In this document: positions 1 to 37,841 of the stretch, piece after piece
Layout of the letters: every line of letters starts with the position of its first letter
Position numbering within the stretch: position 1 is the stretch's first letter
NCBI GenBank assembly: GCA_027319585.1
Contig: DAHVMY010000002.1
Location: 27,155 to 91,154, forward strand
DNA: 64,000 nt
Source: Candidatus Dormiibacterota bacterium
GTDB taxonomy: Bacteria; Chloroflexota; Dormibacteria; Aeolococcales; Bog-877
Direction: 5' to 3'
Notes under the pieces: generated by a model
The model's input: the letters and a program-made list of their open reading frames with translations, nothing else
Databases searched by the model: none
What the model was told of the DNA's origin: nothing
Translations under genes and position numbers: made by a program

Positions 1-846
1 CTGGCTGGCCCCTACCAGCTTGTCCCCGCTGCAGAACAAAAGGTCGACCCCGGCCTTCACGCTCGCTAGGAGACGGTCCTCTGGCTGGGTCGCGACCTCC
101 GCCGCGGGGATCAGCCCGCTGCCCACATCCTCCAGCAGGAGGAGTCGCCGCTGGTGGGCGGCGCGGGCCAGCTCCCGCACGGAGGGCCGCTCCACGAACC
201 CTTCCATGCGGAAATTGGATTGATGCACCCGCAGCCAGGCGGCGGTGCGAGGACCACAGGCGTCCTCGTAGTCGCTGGGCCGGGTTCGGTTGGTGGTACC
301 GACCTCCCGGAGCCGTGCCCCCGACAGGCGCAGGATGTCGGGGATTCGGAAGCCTCCGCCGATCTCGATGGCCTCACCCCGCGACACCACCACCTCATGC
401 CCCCGGCAGAGGGCCGCCAGCCCCAGCAGCACCGCCGCGGCCCCGTTGTTGACCACCAGCGCACCCTCCGCGCCGGAGAGGGAGCACAGCAGCTCGGAGA
501 GCAGGTCCTGGCGGTCGCCCCTGCGCCCCGAAACAAGGTCCAACTCAAGATTGGAGTAGCCTGCGGCGAGCTCGGCCGCTCGTCGCGCCGCGGCCACCCC
601 CAGCGGCGCTCGGCCCAGGTTGGTGTGGATCACGACACCGGTCCCATTCACGACCCGCCGGAGCCGGCGGGGAGCCCGCGCGACCCCCGCGGTGGCGCGC
701 CGCACCACCCAGTCCTCAGCGGTCAGCGGCCCGAGGACGCATGGGTCCCGTAGGGCCCGCAACTCCGCGACCGCGGCACGGATGGCGGCGACGGTCGCCC
801 CGCGACCGTGCTCTGCGGCCAGCTGACGCACATCATCCCGAAGCAT
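1..846 (-). CDS. selA: L-seryl-tRNA(Sec) selenium transferase (SelA), N-terminal about 280 aa; the gene continues past the window start
   Basis: The reverse strand is open from an ATG (reverse complement of 844-846) to the window edge, so the ORF track omits it (no stop in the window). My translation contains the SelA hallmarks VNGTGVVIHTNLGRAPL, GGGFRIPDIL, VGTTNRT and the PLP-lysine motif CSGDKLVGASQ. These align with E. coli SelA (INLTGTVLHTNLGRA, GGAFRIPDVM, FSGDKLLGGPQAG). Confidence 0.85.
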   Translation of the reverse strand, partial: MLRDDVRQLAAEHGRGATVAAIRAAVAELRALRDPCVLGPLTAEDWVVRRATAGVARAPRRLRRVVNGTGVVIHTNLGRAPLGVAAARRAAELAAGYSNLELDLVSGRRGDRQDLLSELLCSLSGAEGALVVNNGAAAVLLGLAALCRGHEVVVSRGEAIEIGGGFRIPDILRLSGARLREVGTTNRTRPSDYEDACGPRTAAWLRVHQSNFRMEGFVERPSVRELARAAHQRRLLLLEDVGSGLIPAAEVATQPEDRLLASVKAGVDLLFCSGDKLVGASQ

Positions 847-1383
847 GAGTGCGCCGACAGCGGGGAGGTGGGGCCTCGTCCCACTCTGCCCGGGGGTAGC
901 TGAATCGTCCACCCTGTCGACTCTAGTCCCTGGTCCGACGTCGGGCCAAGGAGCTGCGCGCTGTTGGGAGGGACGCCCGTGACTCGGCGGCCCGGCGAAG
1001 CGCCGACCCCCCGTGCGCGCCGACGGCGCTGCGCGATGTCAAACTTCCCGCTCCTGTGCCACCACTGGAAAGACAGGGACCTCGCAGCGAGCGTTGTCGC
1101 AGATTTGGGCTGCCGCCGCGATTGCCGAGTCGGGCAAGAAGCCTCGGGGCCGACGGCGCCCCCGGAATCGGCCACGACACCGCGTTCATTCCACTCGGCC
1201 GAAATCGCCAACGGTCCCCAAGGTCTGCGAGAGCAGCGATGTCCAGAGAGTGACCATGCCGCCTCGGGAAGTTGGGAACCTGGCCGGGGCACTGACGGCT
1301 CCAGCCGTCGGCGGCGCCGTAGGGGAGCCGTGGATGAGTGTTCGCCAGGGTGAATCCCGCGGTAGGGGCACGGCGAATCAATT

Positions 1384-1480
1384 TGGCGGGAGGCGAGGGG
1401 AACGATCCCTCCGGGGACGCGATGTCGCGCCCCCCATCGATTTTGAAGATCGAGGGGCCCACCTGGACCCATGCACTCCC
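1384..1480 (-). tRNA. selC: candidate selenocysteine tRNA (anticodon UCA), 97 nt, ending GCCA
   Basis: Folded by hand on the minus strand. It has a 6-bp D-stem (GGGTCC/GGGCCC with one G-U) and a 4-nt D-loop. The anticodon arm is TCGAT-CTTCAAA-ATCGA, and the loop is identical to E. coli selC (CUUCAAA). There is a 9-bp variable-arm stem with a 4-nt loop. The T-stem is 5 bp (GAGGG/CCCTC). The acceptor is 5' GGGAG(T)GC paired with 3' GCCTCCC, followed by G and CCA (7 bp plus one bulged T). The T-loop ATCGTTC is non-canonical. It lies 537 nt upstream of selA on the same strand. Confidence 0.6.
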
Positions 1481-1501
1481 ATGCCGATGCTACATCAGGG
1501 T

Positions 1502-1804: not shown

Positions 1805-3895
1805 GTGACACGCGCGATGAGCGGCTGGTCGGCGCGGGGGCCTCAATTGGCGGCAGTCGCGCTCGCGGTCCTTTCAAGTGGCTGCGCTCTGCCGCGCAAC
1901 GCTTCGACCACCGCTGGAGCGACCCACCCGATCGTGCTGCCGGCCCACCCGCCTCCCACCATCTCCGCGATCTCGTTCCCGACTGCGCGTGACGGCTGGA
2001 TGGCACTGTCCTCGTCGGGATCGGCTTCCCCCCAGACCGCCCAGTCAATCGTGACCACCAGCGATGGCGGCTCCACCTGGCACACCAGCTGGAAGGGTGG
2101 GCTGTTCCCGTTCTTCTCGACGTCCGCCGGTGCCGAGGCGGGCTGGGTCCTGGCGGGAGAGTCGCTCGCCTGCGGACAGCCGGGCACTCCCCCCGCCGAC
2201 TGCCCGTCGTCAGTGCTGCTGGCGACCGCCGATGGCGGCACCAGTTGGCACCAGCTGCCAGCGATGCCGACTCCGGTCTGGCAGGTCGCATTCGCCACCA
2301 CCGAACTCGGGATCGCTGCGACCGCGCCCAGCTGCAGGGCCGAGGCCTCCCTCTCCGGCGCCCCATGCCCCGGTGCGGTCCTGCTGACCACCGATGGTGG
2401 GGTGCACTGGAGTACCACGCTGCGGACAACTGGCTTGGTGAGCGCGATCGCGGCACGCGGCGACACCCTCTGGGCGGTGACGGGAGTCCCCGGTCTCGAA
2501 GGGGTGACCGGGTCGCCGCACCTGCTGGTGATGCGCAGCGGGGATCAGGGCGGGACGTGGACCCAGGTGGCCAGCCTGGGGCCTCTCTCCCAGATCGGTC
2601 CTGGGCTGGAGGCTCGCCTTCAACTGGGACCTGGAGGCGAGATGTGGCTCAGCTACCTGGAGCAGGACAGCTGTGCCATGCACGGGTGCTCCGTCGGCGG
2701 CTTCGAGAGCGTGGATGGCGGCCTCCGCTGGCGCGCCAACGGACCACCGGATCCCACTCCGCAGGCGGAGTGCGGTGACTTTGCGCCGCCGGGAGCGGTT
2801 GCCATCGCGCCGACCGGAACGGTGATAGGCACCTACCAGAGCAGCCTCGCCACCTGTGAGGCACCGGCGGCATTCCTTTCGAAGTTGGTCGATGGAGAGT
2901 GGCGGCCCGTCCACCGCTGGAACTTCTTCCAGCCGCGGGAGCTCACCTATCCCAGCGCCGAGGTGGGATACGGGGAGAATGGGTCCGCGCTGCTGGCGAC
3001 CCGGGATGGGGGGGCCACCTGGACCCAGGTCTGGCCCGGGCTCAGCCCCACCGGCGGGCTGGATGCCATCTCCAGCGCCATTGCCTTCGGGTACGGCAGC
3101 CTGGGCTCGGACAGCTCGGTCCTGGAGACCCGGGACTCAGGGCGGAGCTGGAGCTTGGTGAGCCAGCTCCCCACCCAGGTCCTGGCCCTGGACATGATCG
3201 GGCCCGAGGTGGGATTCGCCGCCGCCGCAGGCACAGGAGCCGCGCTCCAGTCCTTCGATCTCTACCGCACAGCCGACGGCGGTCGCAGCTGGACCATGGT
3301 CGGTCCGGGCTTCCCCCTTCAGGGCTGGGGGGTGCTCGGACTGTGGCTCACGGCGTCGGGAAGCGGTGTGGGCGCGATCGCCGGCACCGAGGAGGGGACC
3401 GGGTTGCCCTACCCGACGGGATTCTTCGCCGCCAGTGACGGCGGCCGCCGCTGGGAACCGGAGGGCAGCCTTGCCAGCGGCTACAACCTCGTCACCAGCG
3501 CGACCTTCAAGCGGCTCGGGGCAGGGCGATGGCTGGGGCTGGCAGAGGTCAATCACGGCAGGGGCACCGAGCTCGAGGAGTCGCAGGACCTGGGCCACAC
3601 CTGGTCGCTCGTGCCAGGGGCGCCGACCCGCCTGGCCGCGCTCGACCTCAGCGGGGATCGGGGATCGGTGGTCGCCGCGCAGGTCGGAGCCGGAGACAAC
3701 CCCCTTGTCCGAATCTACCTCGCCTCGACCGCCGGCGGTAAGTGGCGCCCGGCGGCGGCTCGCCCGGCCGTGGCTCGGGGCGGAGCCCTCAGCGCGCCCG
3801 ACATCTCCATCGCCAACTCGGAAACGGTGTGGCTGCTGACGGCCGGAGCGGTGTGGGAGACGACCGACGGGGGCGCGAGCTGGCGGCCGGCGTGA
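1805..3895 (+). CDS. secreted lipoprotein with at least 10 BNR/Asp-box repeats (S-x-D-x-G-x-T-W)
   Basis: A 696-aa ORF. The N-terminus has a signal peptide and lipobox (AVLSSGC). Repeats include TSDGGSTWH, TADGGTSWH, TTDGGVHWS, SGDQGGTWT, SVDGGLRWR, TRDGGATWT, TRDSGRSWS, TADGGRSWT, ASDGGRRWE and TTDGGASWR. This is the beta-propeller architecture of sialidase- or Ycf48-like proteins. Confidence 0.8.
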   Translation: MTRAMSGWSARGPQLAAVALAVLSSGCALPRNASTTAGATHPIVLPAHPPPTISAISFPTARDGWMALSSSGSASPQTAQSIVTTSDGGSTWHTSWKGGLFPFFSTSAGAEAGWVLAGESLACGQPGTPPADCPSSVLLATADGGTSWHQLPAMPTPVWQVAFATTELGIAATAPSCRAEASLSGAPCPGAVLLTTDGGVHWSTTLRTTGLVSAIAARGDTLWAVTGVPGLEGVTGSPHLLVMRSGDQGGTWTQVASLGPLSQIGPGLEARLQLGPGGEMWLSYLEQDSCAMHGCSVGGFESVDGGLRWRANGPPDPTPQAECGDFAPPGAVAIAPTGTVIGTYQSSLATCEAPAAFLSKLVDGEWRPVHRWNFFQPRELTYPSAEVGYGENGSALLATRDGGATWTQVWPGLSPTGGLDAISSAIAFGYGSLGSDSSVLETRDSGRSWSLVSQLPTQVLALDMIGPEVGFAAAAGTGAALQSFDLYRTADGGRSWTMVGPGFPLQGWGVLGLWLTASGSGVGAIAGTEEGTGLPYPTGFFAASDGGRRWEPEGSLASGYNLVTSATFKRLGAGRWLGLAEVNHGRGTELEESQDLGHTWSLVPGAPTRLAALDLSGDRGSVVAAQVGAGDNPLVRIYLASTAGGKWRPAAARPAVARGGALSAPDISIANSETVWLLTAGAVWETTDGGASWRPA

Positions 3896-4073: not shown

Positions 4074-5132
4074 ATGTCGCGCACCTTCCGTGCTCTGGCC
4101 GCCGGCGCCGTTGCGGTTGCGGCGCTCCTGGTCGCACTGACCGGGTGCGGAGGGGTTCCGGCGCATCTCCGCCCCAGACGGCGCCGTGAGTCAGCGGCGA
4201 GGCACCAGCAGGCGGGAACGGCGACGGGGGCGACTCCGCTGGCTGCGGTGGCCCTCCCCGCAGGCACCCACCTCCCTGAGGCGCTCAGGTTCAAGGGCGA
4301 GCTGGCGGCGTCGGTCACTGTCGGCTACGCGGCCCGGTGCGGGGTCTACCCGGGGTACGGGTATCTGGCGGCGCTCGAGCTGCCGCTGGCCGGTAGGGTG
4401 GCGAGCCTGACAATTCAGCTCCCCATGTTCAACGGCCCAGGCCTCTACCGGGTGGGGTCTCCCGCCGGCCTTGCGACCGCCGTCGCCACGACCCGGTTGA
4501 GCACCCTCGGAGAGGCACAGGCGGGATCGGTCGTGGTCTCGCCCGGAGGGCGGGGCGGCAGCCTGGAGCTGTATTTCGGCTCCGCCCGCCAGGGCAGCCG
4601 TGGCAATCAATACGCCGAGGTGGTGAGCGGGAACTGGACCTGTGCGCCGCCGGGGCTCAACCCGACGGTCTCGTCCTCGTTCGTGACCAACGCCTATCAG
4701 GCCCTGACCGTGAGCGGTGCCATGTCGGGGCACGTGGGAGCCGCCGATGTCCCGGGCTCGAGCCTGGTGGACGGCGCCCCGAACTGCGGTGTGTACCACA
4801 CCGCGTCCGGCGTCCACTTCAACGTCGCCATGGTGGTCGGGCTGGCCGGCCACCCCTTCATCCTGGATGTGCAGCTCCAGCAGTACCAGGGGGCGGGGCA
4901 GTACTACCCCGCCTTCACCACCGCCAGCCTGCCGATGGAGACCAACTGGGCCACGGGAGAGGTCGTTCCCGACGGGTCTGTGGGCAGCTCTGGAGCGATA
5001 CCCAGCTCAAACTGGGCGGCGGTGGGCGGGGACTTCCGCTTGGACGCCGGGCTGGACTCCGGCCTGATGGCCATCCGGTTCATGGACCGCACCGGCGCCT
5101 CGTTCGTCGTGACCGGGGCGTGGAGCTGCTGA
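4074..5132 (+). CDS. hypothetical lipoprotein
   Basis: The internal ATG at 4074 gives MSRTFRALAAGAVAVAALLVALTGCGG, a signal peptide with a lipobox. Codon usage is high in GC3. I recognised no further domain. Confidence 0.6.
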   Translation: MSRTFRALAAGAVAVAALLVALTGCGGVPAHLRPRRRRESAARHQQAGTATGATPLAAVALPAGTHLPEALRFKGELAASVTVGYAARCGVYPGYGYLAALELPLAGRVASLTIQLPMFNGPGLYRVGSPAGLATAVATTRLSTLGEAQAGSVVVSPGGRGGSLELYFGSARQGSRGNQYAEVVSGNWTCAPPGLNPTVSSSFVTNAYQALTVSGAMSGHVGAADVPGSSLVDGAPNCGVYHTASGVHFNVAMVVGLAGHPFILDVQLQQYQGAGQYYPAFTTASLPMETNWATGEVVPDGSVGSSGAIPSSNWAAVGGDFRLDAGLDSGLMAIRFMDRTGASFVVTGAWSC

Positions 5133-5245
5133 GCCCCGAGCCGCGCGCCAGGAAAGTGAGCGCGCCCCGGGGCCGCGCGCCAGGGAGCGGCCCGGCGGCC
5201 CCGCCGCCTTCTGCGATCGCGAGCGGCACCTATAATCCCAGGCCG

Positions 5246-6903
5246 ATGGACGACAAGGCGATGGTCGACCTGCTGGAGCGGGTGGGCAATCTGTTCACGT
5301 CCAGCCTCGACGTCAAGGTCAACATCGACTTCACCCTGCGGGCGCTCTCCCAGCTGGTCGAGTGCGACTCGGAGACCGTGTTCCTGCTGGACGACGAGGA
5401 GAGCCGGCTGACCGCGATGGTGACGTACCCCTACACCGAGCAGGTGGGCAGCGTGGCATCGTTCGGCCTGGGCGAGGGGATCGTGGGTTGGTCCGTCGCC
5501 GAGCGCAAGGCGGCCCGGGTCGCCGACGCGACCACCGACCCACGCTTCAAGACCCTCGCGTCGGGCACCACGCCCAAGAGCGTCATGGTGATGCCCCTGG
5601 AGTCGCCCAACCGGGTCGTGGGCGCGCTCACATTGGGGCGCAAGCAGGTCAAGCCGTTCACCGATCTGGAGCAGGCGCTGGTCCGGGTCATCGCCAACCA
5701 GGCCGCCATCAGCCTGGACAACGCGGCGCTGCATGCGTCGGCCCAGCGCCAGCTCCAGGAGATCGCACTGCAGAAGCATGAGCTGGAGGTCGCCAACGCC
5801 CAGATCCGCGAGAACAGCCGGCTGAAGAGCGAGTTCCTGGCCAACATGAGTCACGAGCTGCGCACCCCGCTCAACTCCATCCTCGGGTTCAGTGAGATCC
5901 TCAAGGACAATCTCGCCGGCAAGATGAGCCCGCAGCAGGAGCAGGAATGTCTGGAGAACATTCACTCCAGTGGACGGCACCTGCTCAATCTGGTGAATGA
6001 CGTACTCGACCTCAGCAAGATCGAGGCGGGCCGGCTGGAGCTGCAGTACGAGGAATTTCAGGTGGGCAGCTGCATCTCCGAGGTCCTGACGGTGGTCAGA
6101 CCACTGGCCGAGCGCGCCTCCGTCAACGTGGTGGTGGAGCTGGACAACGAGAGTGCGCTGCTGCGGGCGGATAAGGGGAAGTTGAAGCAGATCCTCTACA
6201 ACCTTCTGTCCAACGCCATCAAGTTCACCCCCGAAGGGGGCCAGGCGCTGGTGAAGACGCGCACCAAGCCACGGGCCGGGCAGTTGGTGCTGCAGGTCAA
6301 GGACAGCGGAATCGGCATAGCCCCCGACCATCACGAGCAGATCTTCAGCGAGTTCTTCCAGGTTCAGGCCGCCGCCGATCGGCAGTTCGAGGGGACCGGC
6401 TTGGGGCTGGCCCTGGTCAAGCGGCTGGTGGGATTGCACGGGGGCACGATCAAGGTCGACAGCCAGTTGGGCAAGGGGGCTACCTTCACCGTCACCCTGC
6501 CGCTGCGGGGGCTGCGCCCCGATGGGCAGCTCCGCAACCGGATCCTGGTCATCGAAGACAACCCCTCCAGCCTGGAGCTGTCCACCCTGGTGCTGCGGGG
6601 GCAGGGCTTCAAGGTCGACACCGCGACCGACGGGCAGGAGGGGCTGCAGATGGCCAAGGCCCACCCCTATGACCTAATCCTCATGGACATCCAGCTCCCC
6701 GGGATCGACGGGCTGACCGTGACCCGCCTGCTCAAGGCCGATCCCCGGACCGCGAGAACCCCTATCGTTGCCCTGAGCGCCCGGGCCATGCTCGGCGATG
6801 AACGCGAGGCACTGGAGGCGGGCTGCTCGGGCTACATCACCAAGCCCATAGAGGTCAAGAGCTTTCTGAACACGGTGACCGAATACCTGGAGGCACAGGG
6901 AGC

Positions 6904-6907
<4 letters not shown>
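5246..6907 (+). CDS. hybrid sensor histidine kinase (GAF, HisKA, HATPase_c and a C-terminal receiver)
   Basis: The H-box is MSHELRTPLNSILGFSEIL. The G-boxes are DSGIGIA and GTGLGLALVKRLV. The C-terminal REC domain has the phospho-acceptor in LILMDIQLPGIDG. The N-terminal GAF-like region includes GEGIVGWSV. The start was moved to ATG 5246 (MDDKAMVDLL) to avoid overlap with the upstream gene. Confidence 0.85.
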
Positions 6908-7602
<695 letters not shown>

Positions 7603-13040: not shown

Positions 13041-13166
13041 TTTGCGGGGTCGGCTGAGCAAAGCGCGCAACTTGGCGGCGGGCCTGCTATAGTACCGGCC
13101 GCCAGACAGTTCCGGGCGGCGATACAAGGCACGACCGAGTGGTCCTGGCTAGCTTCGTGTTGGAGG

Positions 13167-13493
13167 ATGCTCGGATTGAGCCTCGTCGACGTCACCCTGA
13201 CCTGCCGGGAGTGCGGGTCGGAATTCATCTTTACGGCCGGGGAACAGCAGTTTTATCAGTCGAAGGGCTTGGTCAACCAGCCCACCCGCTGCCAGCCCTG
13301 CCGGCAGCTGGCCAAGGCGTCCCGTCAGGGCTCGGCAGGAGGTTACGGCTCCTCGGGCCCGCGGCCCCCGCGGCAGATGCATGAGGTCGTCTGTGCCGAC
13401 TGCGGCACCCTGACCCAGGTGCCGTTCGAGCCCAAGTACGATCGGCCCGTCTACTGCAGCGCCTGCTTCGAGAACCACCGGGTAGCCCGCTGA
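13167..13493 (+). CDS. double zinc-ribbon protein (two CxxC...CxxC units)
   Basis: It has CRECG...CQPCR and CADCG...CSAC. The FTAGEQQFY motif is typical of a conserved small zinc-ribbon family. Confidence 0.7.
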   Translation: MLGLSLVDVTLTCRECGSEFIFTAGEQQFYQSKGLVNQPTRCQPCRQLAKASRQGSAGGYGSSGPRPPRQMHEVVCADCGTLTQVPFEPKYDRPVYCSACFENHRVAR

Positions 13494-30254: not shown

Positions 30255-31226
30255 GTGGCGTTCGGACCGGTGCGCCCCGTGGTAGCCGCCGCCGTTGGAC
30301 AGGTGGTAGCTGTCCTGGTGGTGCTGATGCTCTCGCCCCTGCTGCGAGGGGTGATCGAGAACCTCAAGGCGAAGGTGCAGTCGCGCCAGGGCTCGCCGTG
30401 GCTACAGCCCTATTTCGATCTCTGGAAGCACCTGCACAAGCAGCGCAGTCGCACGGTGCACAGTTCGACCGTCTCCACGGTCGCGCCGTACGTGGTCTTC
30501 GCCACTCCGATCGCGTTTGCGATCCTGATCCCGGTGCTGACCGCGGCACCTCTCAGTTGGGCCTTCATGGCCGACATGGTCGGAAGCGGGTTCGTCATCG
30601 GCATCGGCGGTTTCTTCACCAACCTCGCCGCCATGGACGGCGGGAGTCCCTACGGTGGACTCGGAAGCAGCCGGTCCCGGTTCGTGTCAACGCTTGCCGA
30701 ACCGACATTCATCGTGGTTTTCTTCGCCGTCGGTTTCATTTCCGGAGGCACGGTGCCGTTCGTGGTCAACAACGCGCTCTTCACCAGCGCTGCCCGCGTG
30801 GTGCCCAGCCACGCGCTGGTGGCCGCAGCGTTCCTGATGGTGATCTTGGCGGAGGCGGGGCGGCTCCCCATCGACAACCCCAATAGCTCGCAGGAGCTGT
30901 CGATGATCGAAGGCTCCCGCCTCTACGAGTTCTCCGGGCCTGATCTGGCGCTCTTTGAGTGGGGCGGCCACATGAAGTTGTTTGTTCTGCTCATCGTCTG
31001 GCTCAATGTGCTGGTCCTACCGCTGGGTCTGGCGCAGGCCATCACGGTGCCCGCGTTCCTGGTGGCGATTGCGTCTCTGATGGGAAAGATGCTGGCCGCG
31101 GCCGTCCTGGTGGTGGGAATCGAGTCGGCTTTGGCCAAGATCCGCATCATGCGCGTGCCTGAGTACCTGGGAGGCAGTTTCGTGCTCGCCTTTCTGGGCC
31201 TGGCCCTCTACACGGTGGGACATTGA
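30255..31226 (+). CDS. HycD/NuoH-like membrane subunit of a group-4-hydrogenase-like (Ehr-type) complex
   Basis: It is an eight-TM protein. The N-terminal LKAKVQSRQGSPWLQPYFDLWK is typical of HycD/HyfC/NuoH. A GTG start is preceded by GAAGGAG. Confidence 0.8.
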   Translation: MAFGPVRPVVAAAVGQVVAVLVVLMLSPLLRGVIENLKAKVQSRQGSPWLQPYFDLWKHLHKQRSRTVHSSTVSTVAPYVVFATPIAFAILIPVLTAAPLSWAFMADMVGSGFVIGIGGFFTNLAAMDGGSPYGGLGSSRSRFVSTLAEPTFIVVFFAVGFISGGTVPFVVNNALFTSAARVVPSHALVAAAFLMVILAEAGRLPIDNPNSSQELSMIEGSRLYEFSGPDLALFEWGGHMKLFVLLIVWLNVLVLPLGLAQAITVPAFLVAIASLMGKMLAAAVLVVGIESALAKIRIMRVPEYLGGSFVLAFLGLALYTVGH

Positions 31227-31891
31227 CGGCACTGAGTGCGATGCCCCGGCTGCTTGAGGTGATCCTGTCGGCGCTCCTCCTGCTGGTCACCTACTGGTTC
31301 ATCGTGACGCGGCGGCTCAGCACCGCGGTGGCCGCCTACGCGGTCCAGTCGTGGCTCCTGGGGCTCGCGGCTCTGATCCTTTACTGGGACACCCGCCTAC
31401 TGGGACTGCTGGTCTTCGGACTGCTGATCATCGTCGCCAAGGGGATCCTGATCCCGAGCCTCTTCCGGCGCCAGGTAGCGTTCGCTCTGGTTGCCGGCAG
31501 AGAAACCGCCTACTACGTCCGCTTTCCTACTGCGCTGCTGATCGGGACGGCGCTGAGTCTGGTCGGTCTGCTCGCGGCCACCGACCTTCCGTTCGTGCCG
31601 CAGCTTCTTCCACCTGCGATCGCCGGCATCGCCCTGGCGGTCTTCCTCCTTGGCCTCTTCACAACCATCGCTCGGCGTGACGCCATCCTGCAGGTGACCG
31701 GGCTACTGGCAGCCGAGAACGGGCTGCTGCTGCTGAGCCTGGTGGTGGCCCCCCAGCTCAGCCTCCTGATCGAGGTGGCGATTGTGTTGGACGTGCTCAT
31801 CGCGGTGCTGGTGATGGGCTTCCTGGTGGCCCGCATGCGGGATGCCGGCACCGGGACAGACACCTCCGAGCTCTCCCGGCTGCGCGGATGA
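31223..31891 (+). CDS. HyfE-like small membrane subunit
   Basis: It is a 222-aa polytopic membrane protein. Its start overlaps the upstream stop. The size and position match hydrogenase-4 component E. Confidence 0.65.
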   Translation: MTALSAMPRLLEVILSALLLLVTYWFIVTRRLSTAVAAYAVQSWLLGLAALILYWDTRLLGLLVFGLLIIVAKGILIPSLFRRQVAFALVAGRETAYYVRFPTALLIGTALSLVGLLAATDLPFVPQLLPPAIAGIALAVFLLGLFTTIARRDAILQVTGLLAAENGLLLLSLVVAPQLSLLIEVAIVLDVLIAVLVMGFLVARMRDAGTGTDTSELSRLRG

Positions 31892-33372
31892 CCAACAGCA
31901 GTCTCATGTTGGCGGTGCTGGCGGTTCCCCTGCTGGGGGGACTTGCCAGCCTGCTGGCCCTCAGCGACCGGACCCGCTTCCTCCTGGTGGTCCCGACTGG
32001 GGTGGCCACCCTGGCGCTGGGCCTCACCCTGATCGCTCGGGTTGTCCAATCCGGCCCGGTGGCCGGGCTGAACCAGTGGCTCTACGTCGATGACCTTGAT
32101 GCCGTGGTGCTGCTGGTGGTCGTGGTGGTGGCCGCGCTGGCGGGAGCCTACTCCGTGGCCTATTTCCGCAGCCCCGCCCAGGCCCACGCTATGCGGCCCG
32201 GCGAGATCCGCAAGTATTTCAGCCTCTTCCACTTCTTCACCTTCACCATGGTCCTGGCGACTGTGGCGGGGAACCTGATCCTGCTCTGGACCGCCGTGAC
32301 CGCCACCACGTTTGCAGCCGCGCCCTTGGTCGATTTCTATGGCTCCCATGAGCCCCTGGAGGCGGCCTGGAAGTTTCTCGTGCTCGCGGTCGCAGGCGAA
32401 CTGATCGCGCTCCTGGGCTTCTTCCTGTTATTCGAAGCTGGGATCGCCGCCCTCGGCGCCAGCTATAACTTCTCGATCCCGGTGCTGGACCGTGCGGGAC
32501 CCCATCTCAACGGGGCCTTGGGGGGAATCGGCTTCTTGATGGTGCTGGTGGGCTTCGGAACCAAGGCCGGCCTGGCTCCGATGCACACCTGGCTGCCCGA
32601 CGCCCACAGCCAGGCACCCGCTCCCGTCTGCGCCATGCTGTCTGGGGCGGAGTTGAATTGCGCGATGCTGGCCATCATCAGAGTCCTCGCTTTGGTCACT
32701 CCAGCCAGCCCCGCGCACGCCCGCGGCCTGCATGAGGCGCTGCTGGCCTTTGGGCTGCTGTCCATGGTGGTCGGGGTCGTGTTCCTCATCGCCCAGCGCA
32801 ACTTCAAGCGCCTGCTGGCGTACTCCTCCGTTGAGCAGATGGGCCTGATCGCGGCCGGCTTTGGCCTGGGGGCTCCCATCGCGACGCTGGGGGCGGCACT
32901 GCAGATGATCACTCACAGCCTTGCCAAGAGCCTCATGTTCTTCAATTCCGGCAACCTGCTGCTGCGCTTCCGCACCACCACGGTGGCGGAGATTTCGGGA
33001 GCCATCCGAGTAGCCCCGGCGTCGGCCATCCTGGTGATCACGGGGGCACTGGCGATCGCGGGAGCGCCCCCGTTCGGGCTCTTCATCTCCGAGTTCGCCA
33101 TCATTGAGGGGGCCCTGGTACGACATGCCTGGGCGGTGGCAGCGGGGCTCGGGGTGCTGTTGCTGGTCGCATTTTTGGCCCTCCTGGAACCGTTCAACCG
33201 CATGGTGTTCGGCACTGGCAGGGGAGAGCCGGTGCCGGCGCGATCCGAGCTGGGCCTGGCGGTGCTGGTGCCGGGCTACCTGCTCCTGGGCGGATTGTTG
33301 GTGCTGGGTGTCTGGATTCCCGGTCCGCTGCACTCGCTGCTCGTGGGTGCCAGTCGAGTTGCCATGAGATGA
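31888..33372 (+). CDS. NuoN/HyfF-like antiporter-type membrane subunit
   Basis: It has the Mrp/NuoLMN antiporter-fold motifs GFGTKAGLAPMHTWLPDAH and PVCAMLSGAELN. Start and stop overlap the neighbouring genes. Confidence 0.8.
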   Translation: MTNSSLMLAVLAVPLLGGLASLLALSDRTRFLLVVPTGVATLALGLTLIARVVQSGPVAGLNQWLYVDDLDAVVLLVVVVVAALAGAYSVAYFRSPAQAHAMRPGEIRKYFSLFHFFTFTMVLATVAGNLILLWTAVTATTFAAAPLVDFYGSHEPLEAAWKFLVLAVAGELIALLGFFLLFEAGIAALGASYNFSIPVLDRAGPHLNGALGGIGFLMVLVGFGTKAGLAPMHTWLPDAHSQAPAPVCAMLSGAELNCAMLAIIRVLALVTPASPAHARGLHEALLAFGLLSMVVGVVFLIAQRNFKRLLAYSSVEQMGLIAAGFGLGAPIATLGAALQMITHSLAKSLMFFNSGNLLLRFRTTTVAEISGAIRVAPASAILVITGALAIAGAPPFGLFISEFAIIEGALVRHAWAVAAGLGVLLLVAFLALLEPFNRMVFGTGRGEPVPARSELGLAVLVPGYLLLGGLLVLGVWIPGPLHSLLVGASRVAMR

Positions 33373-34919
33373 CCGGGTCTGCAGGCATGATGGCGATCGC
33401 CACAGCTGTGGGACTTTCGGCGCACAGCGGAGCCCGCAATGAGTGGGTGGTCGACTGCCCGGCTTCGGAACTGGCCCCGAGGTTGCGCCGGCTGGTCGAG
33501 GAGCTGACTCTGGTCGACCTGTTCGCGACCACCGCCAAGGGATCTCGCCCACGACTCACCGCGGTGCTGGATGCGCCCGGCGACCCCGCCTGGCTGGTGG
33601 TCCACTGCGATCTGCCCGAGGCGGCATTCCCGAGCTTGAGCGCGGTCTCCCATGCCGCTAGCTGGTACGAGCGCGACATTCTGGAGATGCACAAGGTGAT
33701 GCCACAGGGGCATCCCGCCCCCTATCCCCTGCGCCAGGGGAAGTCGGGAGAGCCCGGGCCGAAACGGGCTGGTGGGGCGGCTGGCGCGGGGGACGACTCG
33801 GGGCAGCGGCCCAAGCAGCGCCCAGCCGTGACCGGCCAAGGGGTCTTTGAGCTCCCTTTGGGCCCGGTTCGAAGCGGCCCCCAGGAATCCCAGGGGTTCA
33901 GCTTCTTCTCCGGAGGAGAGGACATCGTCGTCACCGACATCACCCTGGGTTTCAAATTCCGGAGTGTCGAGCGAATCGCCGAAGGTCGCGCTCCGGCCGA
34001 CGTCATCTTGCTCGCGGAGCGGATTGCGGCGTCGTCCTGCTTCGCCAACGCCCTGGCATTCTCGAGAGCGGTGGAGCGGGTGATTGGGGCCGAGGTCACC
34101 CCGTCGGAGCAGTTCACCCGCACTCTCCTGGCCGAACTGGAGCGGGCCTACAACCATCTGGGAGTGATCGGGCGGCTGGCCGAGGCGACTGGTCTGCAGG
34201 TCGCCGCCGCCCAATTCAGCCTGATGAGAGAGCGGGCTCTACGCGCCTCCGGACGGCTCACCGGGCACCGCTACCTTCGAGGCGCGCTGCGGATTGGAGG
34301 TACCGAAGTGGTGCCACCGGAGGGGGACCGGGTTTGGCTGCGCTCCGAGGTCGAGGCGTGGCGGAGCCAAGCCCTCCGCCTGCGTCACCTGCTTGAAGGG
34401 ACCTCCACCTTCGTCGACAGGCTCGACACCACCGCGTACTTGGATCCCGGCTATGCCGCCGAACACAACCTGGTGGGTCCGGTGGGGCGGGCCAGTGGGA
34501 TCGACAGCGACCTGCGCCGCGACCATCCCTACGGCGCCTATTCAGCAGTGGAGTTCGTAGTTCCGCTGCTGTCCCTGGGCGATGCCAAGGCCCGTTACAC
34601 CGTCCACGTGATGGAGCTGGAGCAAACGCTGGGAGTGCTGCTCCAGCTGCTCGACCGCTGGCCCCACGCGCAGCCACCGGCTCCGCTTCCCAAACTGCGT
34701 TCTGGCTCCGCGCTGGGGTGGGCGGAGGCTCCCGGAGGGGCAACTGTCCACCTCGTGACCCTGGACGAGGGCGGGCGCGTCGCGAGGTGGCGGGCCCGTC
34801 CGCCTGCAGTCGTGAACTGGCACCCATTCGCGCACGCGTGCGCGAGCGGCAACAACCTCACCGATTTCCCGGTCATCGAAGCGAGCTTCGGGCTCGCGAG
34901 TGCGGAGTTCGATAGATGA
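33369..34919 (+). CDS. NuoC-NuoD-fused 'large subunit' homologue lacking the NiFe-binding cysteines
   Basis: The NuoC-like signature is WYERDILEMHKV. The L1 motif RxCGxCxxxH reads ERIAASSCFANALAF here. The C-terminus is ASFGLASAEFDR (NuoD-like, GEVDR) instead of DPCxxCxxR. Confidence 0.8.
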   Translation: MTGSAGMMAIATAVGLSAHSGARNEWVVDCPASELAPRLRRLVEELTLVDLFATTAKGSRPRLTAVLDAPGDPAWLVVHCDLPEAAFPSLSAVSHAASWYERDILEMHKVMPQGHPAPYPLRQGKSGEPGPKRAGGAAGAGDDSGQRPKQRPAVTGQGVFELPLGPVRSGPQESQGFSFFSGGEDIVVTDITLGFKFRSVERIAEGRAPADVILLAERIAASSCFANALAFSRAVERVIGAEVTPSEQFTRTLLAELERAYNHLGVIGRLAEATGLQVAAAQFSLMRERALRASGRLTGHRYLRGALRIGGTEVVPPEGDRVWLRSEVEAWRSQALRLRHLLEGTSTFVDRLDTTAYLDPGYAAEHNLVGPVGRASGIDSDLRRDHPYGAYSAVEFVVPLLSLGDAKARYTVHVMELEQTLGVLLQLLDRWPHAQPPAPLPKLRSGSALGWAEAPGGATVHLVTLDEGGRVARWRARPPAVVNWHPFAHACASGNNLTDFPVIEASFGLASAEFDR

Positions 34920-35761
34920 GCCGATGGATTCTCCGGGGTTTGCGCAGCGGAATCCGTACCACCCGCTTCCCGAGTCCGACCCCGCCGTACGAGGAAGGAG
35001 CGAGTTCCACGGTCCGCCTGCAGTGGCAGCGACTCAGCGCCCCGGATGCTCTGGCCGCAGCCCAAATGTGCCCTAGCGGAGCGATCCAGGCGCAGGGTAC
35101 GGAAGTGGAGGGAGAGCTGACCTACGATGCGGGACGATGCATCATGTGCGGCCGCTGCGCCCGGCACCTCCCGCAAGTTTTCCTGCCGGTGAAGGATGGC
35201 CGGGTGGCGGTGCGCCAGCGGAGCAGCCTGGTCACCAGGGTGGGATGGAGCGCGGCTAACCGGCCTCTGCCGCTCGAGTTGGGCCGAGCGGCGGAGGAGG
35301 TCCGCCAGCGAGCGGTCAGGATCTTTCGTCACTCCCTCCACATCCGCCATGTGGATGCCGGATCCTGCAACGGCTGCGAGTCTGAGTTGCAGATGCTGAC
35401 CGGACCCTACGCGGACCTGCATCGGCTGGGCATATTCTTCACGCCGACCCCTCGTCACGCGGATGTCCTGCTCGTGACCGGGGTGGTCACCGTCAACATG
35501 GAGCGGCCTCTCATGGAGACCTATGCGGCGATGCCTGAACCCAAGTTGGTGATCGCAGCTGGGGTTTGCGCGGTCAGTGGCGGCAGCTTCGCCGGAGGCC
35601 CGGTCACCCGGGGTCCGGTGGACCGCCTGCTCCCGGTCGATGTCCACATCCCCGGATGCCCTCCCACGCCCCAGGCCATGCTCCACGGTCTGCTGCTGGC
35701 GATGAATCGGGCAGAGGACAGACCTGGACCTGAGCCTGAGGAGGTGGCTGATGGCGCTTGA
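34916..35761 (+). CDS. NuoB/HycG-like small subunit fused to an N-terminal single-cluster ferredoxin-like domain
   Basis: GSCNGCE, GVCAVSGG and HIPGCPP supply the four Cys of the N2-type cluster. RHADVLLVTGVVT is also present. The N-terminal domain has CPSGAI and CIMCGRCARHLP. Confidence 0.8.
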   Translation: MSRWILRGLRSGIRTTRFPSPTPPYEEGASSTVRLQWQRLSAPDALAAAQMCPSGAIQAQGTEVEGELTYDAGRCIMCGRCARHLPQVFLPVKDGRVAVRQRSSLVTRVGWSAANRPLPLELGRAAEEVRQRAVRIFRHSLHIRHVDAGSCNGCESELQMLTGPYADLHRLGIFFTPTPRHADVLLVTGVVTVNMERPLMETYAAMPEPKLVIAAGVCAVSGGSFAGGPVTRGPVDRLLPVDVHIPGCPPTPQAMLHGLLLAMNRAEDRPGPEPEEVADGA

Positions 35762-37841
35762 GCTCCTGGCAGCCGCCCTGGCATGCTATGCGGTCGCCAG
35801 CCTGCTCGGCCTCGGGGTGCTGTGGTGGCGTGGATTCGCCGAGCTATCGGCTGCGGCGGGGTTCGTGGCCGGCCTGCTCGGAGTGGGCACCGCCGCGGTC
35901 TGGCTGGGCGGGGGGCGTGGCGTCCTGCTCTTACCGGTAAGCACGCCATTGGGTGGCTTCACGGTGGCAGCCACCCCGCTGGCGGCTACCTTCGTGCTCC
36001 TCACGGGGGTGGTGAGCAGCGGCCTGTCGTTGTTCACGGCAGGCTACACACCGCATGTTGGCGGTGCCTTGCGCCAGGCCTGCGTCCACTCGTTGCTCAA
36101 TATCACGTTTGCGGCGGTCATCCTGGTGCTGGCGGCCGCAAATGCCCTCACGTTCTTGGTGGCGTGGGAGACGATGGTGATCGCAACCTACGTGCTGGTC
36201 ACGGTCGAGTTCGATCGGCCGGGCCGGCCTCAGGCCGCGTTTCTGATGCTGGCGCTTTCCAAACTCGGATTCATCGCGATCGCCGGCGGCTTTGCCGCAA
36301 TGGGCGCTCTGCGCAGCGGGGTCTCCTTCGCCACCCTCGCCCGTCATCCGGCACCTGGAGCGGGGCTGGCTTCGATCGTCTTTCTGTTGTTTTTGATAGG
36401 GTTCGGGGTCAAAGCTGGCCTGGTACCGCTGCAGGGGTGGCTCACCGAGGCACATCCGGCGGCACCCGCCAACGTATCCGCGGCGCTGTCCGGGGTCGTG
36501 GTCGCCGTTGCCATCTACGGCTTGGTCCTGACCGTCTTGACCTTGCTCGGCCCGCCCTCCGCCTGGTGGGGCTATCTCACCCTGGGTGCAGGGGTCATCA
36601 CCGCCCTCTACGGAGTGCTGTTCTCACTGGTGGTGCCCAACTTCAAGCGGATGTTGGCCTACAGCACCATCGAGAACCTGGGCTTCATGATCGCCATGGT
36701 GGGCCTGGCACTGGTGTTCATCAGCAGTCATCAGCCGCTCCTGGGGGCTGCCGCGCTGGTGGTTGCGATCCTGCACGCGCTGTACCACGGCCTGCTCAAG
36801 AGCACCGCCTTCATGGGCGCGGGTTGCATTGACGTAGCTACCCATGGCCTTGATCTGGATCGTCTCGGAGGTCTGGCCCGGCGCATGCGGTGGTCCACGT
36901 TGCTCTTCTTCGTGGCCGCCATGGGTCTGGCCGGGATCCCGCCGCTGAACGGCTTTCAAACGGAATGGCTGGGACTCCAGATGCTGATTCGATCGCGCAT
37001 CCTGGCCACCCCCGAGAGCCGCCTCTACCTGGCCGGAGCCGGACTGCTGTTGACGCTCACGTTCGCCCTGGCCACCACCGCCTACGTCCGGGTCTTCGGG
37101 GGTGCCTTCCTAGGCGCACCGCGGAGCCGGGAGGCCCGCCAGGCACGCGAGGTGCCCTGGACCATGCGGCTCGGTATGTTCGTAACCGCCGCCGCCGCCG
37201 TGGTCACCGCTCTGGTGCCGGCAATCGGCATCGGCGCCGCAGTCACCTCCGCCTCGGCAGTCACACGCGTGCCTCAGCTCTTGAACGCCCTGCTTCCGCC
37301 GATCTTCCTGAAGCCCCAGCAGTTCGCACTGCCCGCGCGCCTGGGGGGCACATTCCTGAGCCAGATTCTTCCCGGCAACGGGGTGGTGATCACCCCAACC
37401 AGTTTCAACTACGCGTTCATCTCGCCTCCATACATTCTGCTCAGCCTGCTGGCGGTGATCGGGCTGACCGCGGGCGCAATCCACCTGCTGGGCCGCGGCG
37501 AACCCATGCGGCGGGACCCCTGGGTCGGTGGCGGGAGCAGCTTCCGGCCGTCGATGCAGTACACCGCCACCGGTTTCACCAACCTATTCCGCTCGACCTT
37601 CGGAAGGGTCTTTCGGGATCGGCGCACAGTCGCCCAGGAGTACCACCAGTCGCCTTACTACGCCCATTCGGTCAGCTACGAGCGCAGGGTGGTGGAACCG
37701 GTCGAGACCTATCTCTACCGTCCCGTGGTTCTAGCGGCCCGGCAGCTGTCGGCTCGGTTCGGCGTGATCCAAGGGGGGAACGTCGGTCTGTACCTGCTCT
37801 ACGTGGTCGCGGTCTTCGTAATTCTGCTGCTGATCCACTGA
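35751..37841 (+). CDS. NuoL/HyfB-like antiporter-type membrane subunit
   Basis: It is 696 aa long with about 16 TM helices. The antiporter-fold motifs are GFGVKAGLVPLQGWLTEAHPAAP and NVSAALSGVV. Confidence 0.8.
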   Translation: MALELLAAALACYAVASLLGLGVLWWRGFAELSAAAGFVAGLLGVGTAAVWLGGGRGVLLLPVSTPLGGFTVAATPLAATFVLLTGVVSSGLSLFTAGYTPHVGGALRQACVHSLLNITFAAVILVLAAANALTFLVAWETMVIATYVLVTVEFDRPGRPQAAFLMLALSKLGFIAIAGGFAAMGALRSGVSFATLARHPAPGAGLASIVFLLFLIGFGVKAGLVPLQGWLTEAHPAAPANVSAALSGVVVAVAIYGLVLTVLTLLGPPSAWWGYLTLGAGVITALYGVLFSLVVPNFKRMLAYSTIENLGFMIAMVGLALVFISSHQPLLGAAALVVAILHALYHGLLKSTAFMGAGCIDVATHGLDLDRLGGLARRMRWSTLLFFVAAMGLAGIPPLNGFQTEWLGLQMLIRSRILATPESRLYLAGAGLLLTLTFALATTAYVRVFGGAFLGAPRSREARQAREVPWTMRLGMFVTAAAAVVTALVPAIGIGAAVTSASAVTRVPQLLNALLPPIFLKPQQFALPARLGGTFLSQILPGNGVVITPTSFNYAFISPPYILLSLLAVIGLTAGAIHLLGRGEPMRRDPWVGGGSSFRPSMQYTATGFTNLFRSTFGRVFRDRRTVAQEYHQSPYYAHSVSYERRVVEPVETYLYRPVVLAARQLSARFGVIQGGNVGLYLLYVVAVFVILLLIH

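Follow-up and report, generated by a model that had tools for sequence, protein, structure and literature searches.

The question raised by this locus is whether a reading frame that runs off the start of the window, together with a tRNA-like sequence lying 5' of it on the same strand, belongs to a working selenocysteine system. By the window we mean the whole stretch of DNA analysed, 64,000 nt in length. The answer to which the analysis led is that the locus is very probably the start of a functional selenocysteine-incorporation cluster, selC followed by selA-selB-selD, in a Candidatus Dormibacteria genome. Three adjoining features make up the part of it that lies in the window:

Positions 1 to 912, minus strand: selA, encoding L-seryl-tRNA(Sec) selenium transferase, N-terminal part of about 304 codons (by motifs, TIGR00474, homologues and alignment).

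Positions 913 to 1383, minus strand: non-coding spacer of 471 nt from selC to selA.

Positions 1384 to 1480, minus strand: selC, tRNA-Sec(UCA), 97 nt including G73 and the encoded CCA (by ARAGORN, Rfam RF01852, fold and eight copies).

The SelA frame on the minus strand is open from position 1038 to the window start, in agreement with the original prediction, which had reported no selA stop inside the window. About 304 of the approximately 465 codons of the gene lie in the window and the C-terminal 160 or so lie beyond its start; the gene had been described as 5'-truncated, which holds in window coordinates only, whereas the gene itself is cut at its 3' end and lacks the C-terminus. When the 310-residue window fragment was compared with TIGR00474, the selA equivalog model of NCBIfam, a score of 327.6 bits was obtained, which for a partial protein already exceeds the curated cut-off of 267.9 bits. 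The three motifs quoted when SelA was first claimed (HTNLGRAPL, GGGFRIPD and SGDKL) were all found in the translation, where they occupy invariant columns of a 22-sequence alignment, and the PLP-binding lysine motif S-G-D-K is kept. A protein search returned 7,999 SelA homologues, the best of them 99 % identical, and the top ones carry PF03841. The score, the motifs and the homologues confirmed that the frame open off the window start is SelA. Those homologues that bear a name, at 56-67 % identity, come under Candidatus Dormibacteria or Dormibacteraeota, and the glucose-6-phosphate dehydrogenase (G6PD) encoded in the window has a 100 % match in NCBI/ENA and an 89 % match named Candidatus Dormibacteria bacterium. 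Both proteins point to Candidatus Dormibacteria as the origin of the window, here an uncultured soil bacterium.

To which codon the gene extends was less straightforward. The ATG at 844-846 is the start chosen by the gene caller for the 99 % identical protein (P0001). A conserved N-terminal peptide, RP(H/P)LPAVGAL, is encoded 5' of this ATG, and the corresponding RPPAVGxLL segment is conserved in 20 homologues. The TIGR00474 match of the window SelA begins at profile position 3; PF12390, the N-terminal tRNA-binding domain, is recorded in many SelA homologues and weakly or faintly in the closest ones. In a relative with 76 % identity (L085), the codon matching ATG 846 is TTG, not ATG, and both sequences have a start codon exactly 22 codons upstream, GTG at 910-912 in the window and TTG in L085. 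Since a conserved peptide lies 5' of the ATG and the GTG and TTG are aligned, the most likely start of selA, as judged from sequence comparison, is GTG 912 rather than ATG 846, which would make the spacer 471 nt long. The distance of about 540 nt between selC and selA given in the original prediction is right for ATG 846, but is replaced by 471 nt if GTG 912 is used.

A promoter-like element was observed directly 5' of the GTG:

Positions 920 to 949, minus strand: putative selA promoter, TTGGCC (944-949), 18 nt, TAGAGT (920-925), then 7 nt to the GTG (called on sequence only).

The counterpart in L085 reads TTGGCG-19-TAAAGT-7-TTG, and the flanks of the element diverge between L085 and the window. 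An imperfect palindrome occupies 927-952, between the hexamers. The element looks like a promoter from which the selA mRNA would start with little or no leader.

For the tRNA, the whole 64 kb was scanned with ARAGORN, and only one tRNA was reported, a tRNA-SeC with the anticodon tca at 1385-1481 on the minus strand. The Rfam tRNA-Sec model RF01852 matched 1388-1480 on the minus strand over its full length (model positions 1-91) with 55.5 bits (E = 1.6e-8; gathering score 47 bits), and tRNA-Sec was the sole Rfam family at or above threshold in the window. The discriminator G1387 and the encoded CCA (1386-1384) extend the RF01852 match, giving a gene of 97 nt at 1384-1480. Two independent detectors thus score the locus as tRNA-Sec, the check that had been proposed for it, and the claim of a 97-nt tRNA with anticodon UCA stands. 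We regard it as confirmed that the tRNA at 1384-1480 is a real selenocysteine tRNA gene.

The minimum-free-energy fold of selC is the expected cloverleaf, and all the arms described beforehand are seen in it: a D-stem of 6 bp (GGGUCC/GGGCCC) closed by the 4-nt loop AGGU, a 7-nt anticodon loop CUUCAAA with the anticodon UCA, and a variable arm of 9 bp with the 4-nt loop ACAU. The T-stem has 5 bp and the loop AUCGUUC. Both identity elements for SerRS, the long variable arm and the discriminator G73, are present. In the acceptor arm the 5' strand GGGAGUGC stands opposite the 3' strand GCCUCCC and forms 7 bp, with the sixth nucleotide (U6) bulged; GCCUCCC comprises the only 7 nt between the T-stem and G73. 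The acceptor/T helix is therefore 12 bp in length, not the canonical 13 bp (8/5 in bacteria). The anticodon stem has 5 bp plus a C27:G46 pair, which is formed only with U45 unpaired, and the alternative C:U at C27 is flagged by Rfam as non-canonical. In our model the C27:G46 pair is proposed on geometry only, the pair being invariant. The fold z-score of selC is modest (-3.0), so that support for the gene rests on the covariance model and on seven independent metagenome copies.

These copies were obtained by scanning JGI metagenomes with a 21-nt anticodon-arm pattern. Ten matches were returned, seven of which are further tRNA-Sec genes on independent contigs; the other three (L088, L090 and L091) are unrelated low-GC sequences that are not tRNAs, and were discarded. 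All seven are identical to the window's selC in the acceptor, D, anticodon and T arms, the D-stem and its loop being invariant in the eight copies, and one of them (L087) is identical to the window tRNA. Differences between the copies are confined to the flanks, the variable arm and the loop of that arm, and every change in the arm keeps pairing: one pair is seen as CG, GC and UA, and three others change from G-C to G-U. All 33 pairs form in every copy, and 100 % of the 198 pair cells are standard pairs. The invariance of the acceptor, D, anticodon and T stems in the eight copies makes covariation uninformative for those stems. As the bulged acceptor is identical in eight independent contigs, it is a feature of the lineage and not an assembly error.

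The gene order beyond the window start was read from contig L001, which is 99.2 % identical to window positions 1-1082 and continues with full-length selA and after it selB and selD, which are overlapping genes. The full-length SelA of this contig scores 455.8 bits with TIGR00474, its SelB 252.7 bits with TIGR00475 (cut-off 242.25) and its SelD 344.9 bits with TIGR00476 (cut-off 125). In L001, selB and selD begin about 0.5 kb and 2.4 kb past the window start, respectively, and the active site of SelD has a cysteine rather than a selenocysteine (GGCSAK). The prediction that selB and selD would be found elsewhere in the genome is in this way borne out by a near-identical contig, in which both follow selA above their cut-offs; from that contig and from more distant relatives we infer that this exact genome also has them.

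The order selC-selA-selB-selD was also found in L089 and the order selC-selA in L096; in both contigs the tRNA is separated from selA by only 13-20 nt. ARAGORN placed no selC beside selA in the closest SelA relatives (L002-L004, L085 and L086), nor was a tRNA-Sec detected by Rfam in L001, L002 or L004; in L002-L004, whose SelA is 69 % identical, selC does not lie within 10 kb. With five relatives having no selC next to selA, the linkage is not universal in the lineage. A profile search of genome contigs with the SelA alignment gave, among the matches listed, only distant phyla at 38-61 % identity and no Dormibacteria; these contigs were used only for comparison, as a source of other selC genes.

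A candidate target for the machinery was seen in three of the relatives. In L002-L004 a formate dehydrogenase alpha subunit is encoded about 8 kb from selD and was split by the gene caller at an in-frame TGA. The protein reads NNIDSCNRT-TGA-HAPSVAGL, and the TGA region is followed by a SECIS-like GCCGGUCUGGC hairpin with the loop GGUCU. The expectation of an FdhA-type selenoprotein elsewhere in the genome is thus satisfied in relatives at 69 % SelA identity, but not yet in this genome. Within the window, Pfam and NCBIfam scans of about 60 ORFs revealed no selB, selD, fdh, grd or known selenoprotein family. A six-frame screen for in-frame-TGA selenoproteins, requiring a TGA flanked on both sides by coding-like GC3, gave nothing when run strictly, and the candidates of the relaxed screen were only gene ends and shadow frames. 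The GC3 codon-position screen and the ORF scans accordingly agree with the statement in the original prediction that no in-frame-TGA selenoprotein lies in this window. On the other side of selC there is an unrelated BNR/Ycf48-like lipoprotein gene (1805-3895), and then the genes of a hybrid histidine kinase and a response regulator.

The spacer has no coding signal, its GC content being 0.68-0.70 whichever codon position of the six frames is taken, and no similarity of the spacer to the loci compared was found except to L001. The possibility that the 471 nt hold a structured RNA or a small gene was considered and rejected: besides the absence of coding signal there is no Rfam match, and the fold (z = -0.18) is no better than that of shuffled sequences. 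Rejected likewise was the idea that the 3' end of selC carries a mobile element or a duplicated att site, as no tRNA-end repeat is present and the relatives have no integrase downstream of selC. The locus could nevertheless be a decaying remnant, in which the 471-nt insertion marks a Sec system whose selenoproteins have been lost or whose expression has ceased in this genome. The spacer, non-coding and with no homologues, is indeed about 450 nt longer than in L089 and L096, no selenoprotein is seen in 64 kb, and only part of selA lies in the window. We consider decay improbable, however, because the in-window SelA has neither frameshift nor stop and none of its invariant residues is missing, because selA, selB and selD are full-length and exceed their curated cut-offs in the near-identical contig, because the tRNA does not differ from the L087 copy and is conserved in eight contigs, and because a conserved promoter-like element lies 5' of selA.

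A -10-like box was likewise found in front of selC:

Positions 1487 to 1492, minus strand: putative selC -10 box TAGCAT, with its end 6 nt upstream of the mature G1 (deduced from the nucleotide sequence alone).

All eight Dormibacteria-type selC copies and four actinobacterial selC genes (12/12) have a TAnnnT hexamer whose end lies 5-7 nt upstream of the mature G1. It is usually the sole such hexamer in the 200 nt upstream, and elsewhere TAnnnT occurs at 5 of approximately 2,340 positions. A strict scan of positions 700-1900 for sigma-70 consensus promoters and terminators returned nothing, neither putative promoter included. In this genome selC and selA would probably be transcribed separately, each with a putative TAnnnT -10 box of its own. 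The boxes are so placed that transcription would start no more than a nucleotide away from the mature 5' end of the tRNA and from the start codon of selA.

In vertebrates the transcript of tRNA-Sec starts at the first tRNA nucleotide. The E. coli selC, by comparison, is transcribed with a 25-nt leader (PMC12439589), whereas the -10-like box of the Dormibacteria selC predicts no leader. It may be, and we put this forward tentatively as a possibility with the odds against it, that transcription initiation rather than RNase P generates the 5' end of tRNA-Sec in Dormibacteria and in some Actinobacteria. Among 14 other tRNAs from high-GC loci, a control set that is small and largely redundant, one has the same box geometry and ten have the box just 3-4 nt further away; with control tRNAs so near the same geometry, promoter-proximal 5' ends may not be special to tRNA-Sec. 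If the proposal is true, initiation at G1 would mean that RNase P need not select a site on a tRNA whose acceptor stem is non-standard. The position of the putative promoter, predicting a leaderless tRNA-Sec, is the point of possible specialist interest in this locus.

The steps of charging, conversion and delivery are established for the SerRS, SelA, SelD and SelB families. By analogy, SerRS would be aided by the long variable arm and by G73 in charging the tRNA-Sec with serine; the PLP enzyme SelA would recognise the 6-bp D-arm and convert Ser-tRNA(Sec) to Sec-tRNA(Sec) with selenophosphate made by SelD; and SelB would take the Sec-tRNA(Sec) to UGA codons that are followed by a SECIS hairpin. 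The UGA would most probably lie in a gene, outside the window, for the alpha subunit of a formate dehydrogenase. The linkage of selC to selA, selB and selD is the sole proxy, a genomic one, for serylation, conversion by SelA and delivery by SelB. The presence of the locus identifies this Dormibacteria genome as that of an organism using selenium. It is also of use for annotation, given that in relatives the selenoprotein FdhA is cut in two by gene callers, which moreover place the start of selA 22 codons too far downstream. The understanding of selenocysteine insertion is unchanged by it: the annotation is correct and routine, the selenocysteine machinery is ordinary and already understood, and the shape of the tRNA is known but uncommon.

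That shape is known from the work of Santesmasses, Mariotti and Guigo 2017 (PMC5330540), who report 47 bacterial tRNA-Sec with a 7-bp acceptor stem, most of them with a bulged nucleotide at 3a, 4a or 5a and an anticodon-stem bulge at 43a, and usually adjoining selA and selB. The hosts named there for the 12-bp (7/5) class are some Gammaproteobacteria, Clostridiales, Spirochaetes and Alphaproteobacteria, and also Rubrobacter xylanophilus and Dehalogenimonas (PMC5330540). The window selC belongs to this published minority 12-bp class (7 bp plus bulge, and 5 bp) and not to the E. coli 8/5 type, the sub-type being assigned from that paper's text description only. It has the same 7 nt from the T-stem to G73, the same bulge on the 5' strand of the acceptor (their 5a) and, in the 3' half of the anticodon stem, the same unpaired nucleotide (their 43a) as the class described there, and it adjoins sel genes as they do (PMC5330540). 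The host is different, Candidatus Dormibacteria being absent from the lineages named in that description (PMC5330540), and this lineage is added to the carriers of the 12-bp bacterial tRNA-Sec form. Among the papers searched, none mentions Dormibacter* together with selenocysteine.

Further 12-bp forms were described by Mukai et al. 2016/2017 (PMC5389517), namely (8/4) tRNA-Sec with a bulge at 51a, allo-tRNAs, and selC* tRNA-Cys. The window selC shares with them the 12-bp acceptor/T helix, the long variable arm and the tRNA-Sec-like D-arm, whereas theirs are 8/4 or 9/3, with U73 in selC*, and the window selC is 7+1/5 with a 5-bp T-stem and G73. An 8/4 fold of the Actinobacteria/Chloroflexi type of Mukai et al. 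is impossible for it, as its 3' acceptor strand has only 7 nt. That the tRNA is a look-alike standing near selA (an allo-tRNA, a selC*-type tRNA-Cys(UCA) or another opal suppressor), as might be argued from its helix of 12 bp instead of the canonical 13 and from the fact that such tRNAs turned up among tRNA-Sec search matches (PMC5389517), is highly improbable in view of its G73 where selC* tRNA-Cys has U73, its 7+1/5 arrangement against the 8/4 or 9/3 of allo-tRNAs, its score above the Rfam tRNA-Sec gathering score, the sel genes directly 3' of the tRNA in three independent contigs, and the occurrence of the 7/5-plus-bulge form in bona fide selC linked to selAB as described in PMC5330540.

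As a selenocysteine tRNA gene heading a sel cluster, the locus can be compared with the system of E. coli. The four components, selC, selA, selB and selD, and by homology the pathway, are the same, and SelA carries the same PLP-lysine motif. The two selC genes share the CUUCAAA loop, the 6-bp D-stem with a 4-nt loop, the long variable arm, G73 and the 5-bp T-stem. The likeness to E. coli selC had been drawn from the anticodon loop, which is indeed identical; overlooked at the time was that the acceptor is not 8 bp, for the E. coli tRNA-Sec has an 8-bp acceptor stem and a 13-bp acceptor/T helix, while the window selC has 7 bp and a bulged U. The T-loop also differs, being UUCGACU in the E. coli tRNA-Sec and AUCGUUC in the window selC. 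Finally, selC, selAB and selD are unlinked in E. coli, but in the Dormibacteria locus they are clustered.

The T-loop of the tRNA-Sec in the window is AUCGUUC (1398-1404, minus strand), with A at position 54 and U at position 58, where U(T) and A are usual. The loop is unchanged in all eight copies of the Dormibacteria-type tRNA-Sec, and UUCGA was found in the T-loop of the other tRNA-Sec genes of the loci compared (31 of 31). A stretch of about 115 nt carrying the 21-nt anticodon-arm pattern occurs in identical form twice in the low-GC contig L088 (pattern at 762-782 and 4686-4706) and once in the low-GC contig L090 (7559-7579); it is a repeated element without relation to tRNA-Sec.

The following features were recognized around selC, the first from its sequence pattern:

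1487-1492, minus strand: -10-like hexamer TAnnnT of selC
1805-3895, plus strand: BNR/Ycf48-like lipoprotein, on the 5' side of selC
5120-7602, plus strand: hybrid histidine kinase and OmpR-type regulator, on the 5' side of selC

A TAnnnT hexamer ending 5-7 nt upstream of the mature 5' G is present in 12 of 12 tRNA-Sec copies, comprising the window, seven Dormibacteria-type contigs (L087, L089, L092-L096) and four actinobacterial loci (L020, L058, L066, L082), and most of them have no second such hexamer within 200 nt. From this pattern, the tRNA-Sec transcript is predicted to lack a 5' leader. The kinase-regulator pair is kept near selC in L087, L093 and L094 with 82-84% DNA identity, and the 3' side of selC varies from contig to contig.

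Two further regions of the window were inspected:

13041-13493, plus strand: small zinc-finger protein with two treble-clef domains (PF13451, PF23477)
30255-37841, plus strand: six-gene hydrogenase-like cluster

The zinc-finger ORF lies directly downstream of the stop codon of an SDR gene, in the same frame; it is a gene of its own and not a read-through product. Judged by sequence, the six genes look like those of a [NiFe]-hydrogenase of the membrane-bound group 4 or of a formate-hydrogenlyase-type module, with a fused 30-kDa/49-kDa large subunit (weak NiFeSe_Hases match), a small subunit of ferredoxin and Oxidored_q6 type, a NuoH-like protein, an unassigned 222-aa protein and two Proton_antipo_M subunits. 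No formate dehydrogenase adjoins it.

The formate dehydrogenase alpha subunit of the relatives' Dormibacteria-type contigs L002 and L004 is evidently a mis-annotated selenoprotein, which gene callers cut in two at an in-frame TGA (NNIDSCNRT-U-HAPSVAGL):

L002 21335-21337 and L004 13610-13612, minus strand: in-frame TGA

The hairpin GCCGGUCUGGC lies 3' of this TGA in both contigs, and the adjoining ORFs are separate genes, one for a NuoE/F-like fusion, the other for an N-terminal Fe-S module.

Upstream of selA, a promoter-like element was found:

920-952 including a palindrome, minus strand: TTGGCC-18-TAGAGT, putative selA promoter

The element, 7 nt upstream of the GTG start, is conserved in the relative L085. 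The imperfect 26-bp palindrome between its hexamers (centre GACGTC) is a possible operator. In two relatives, L089 (1444-1465) and L096 (1413-1430), only 13-20 nt separate the tRNA-Sec CCA end from the selA start, implying that selC and selABD would be co-transcribed there. The window has an unrelated non-coding spacer of 471 nt in place of this gap.
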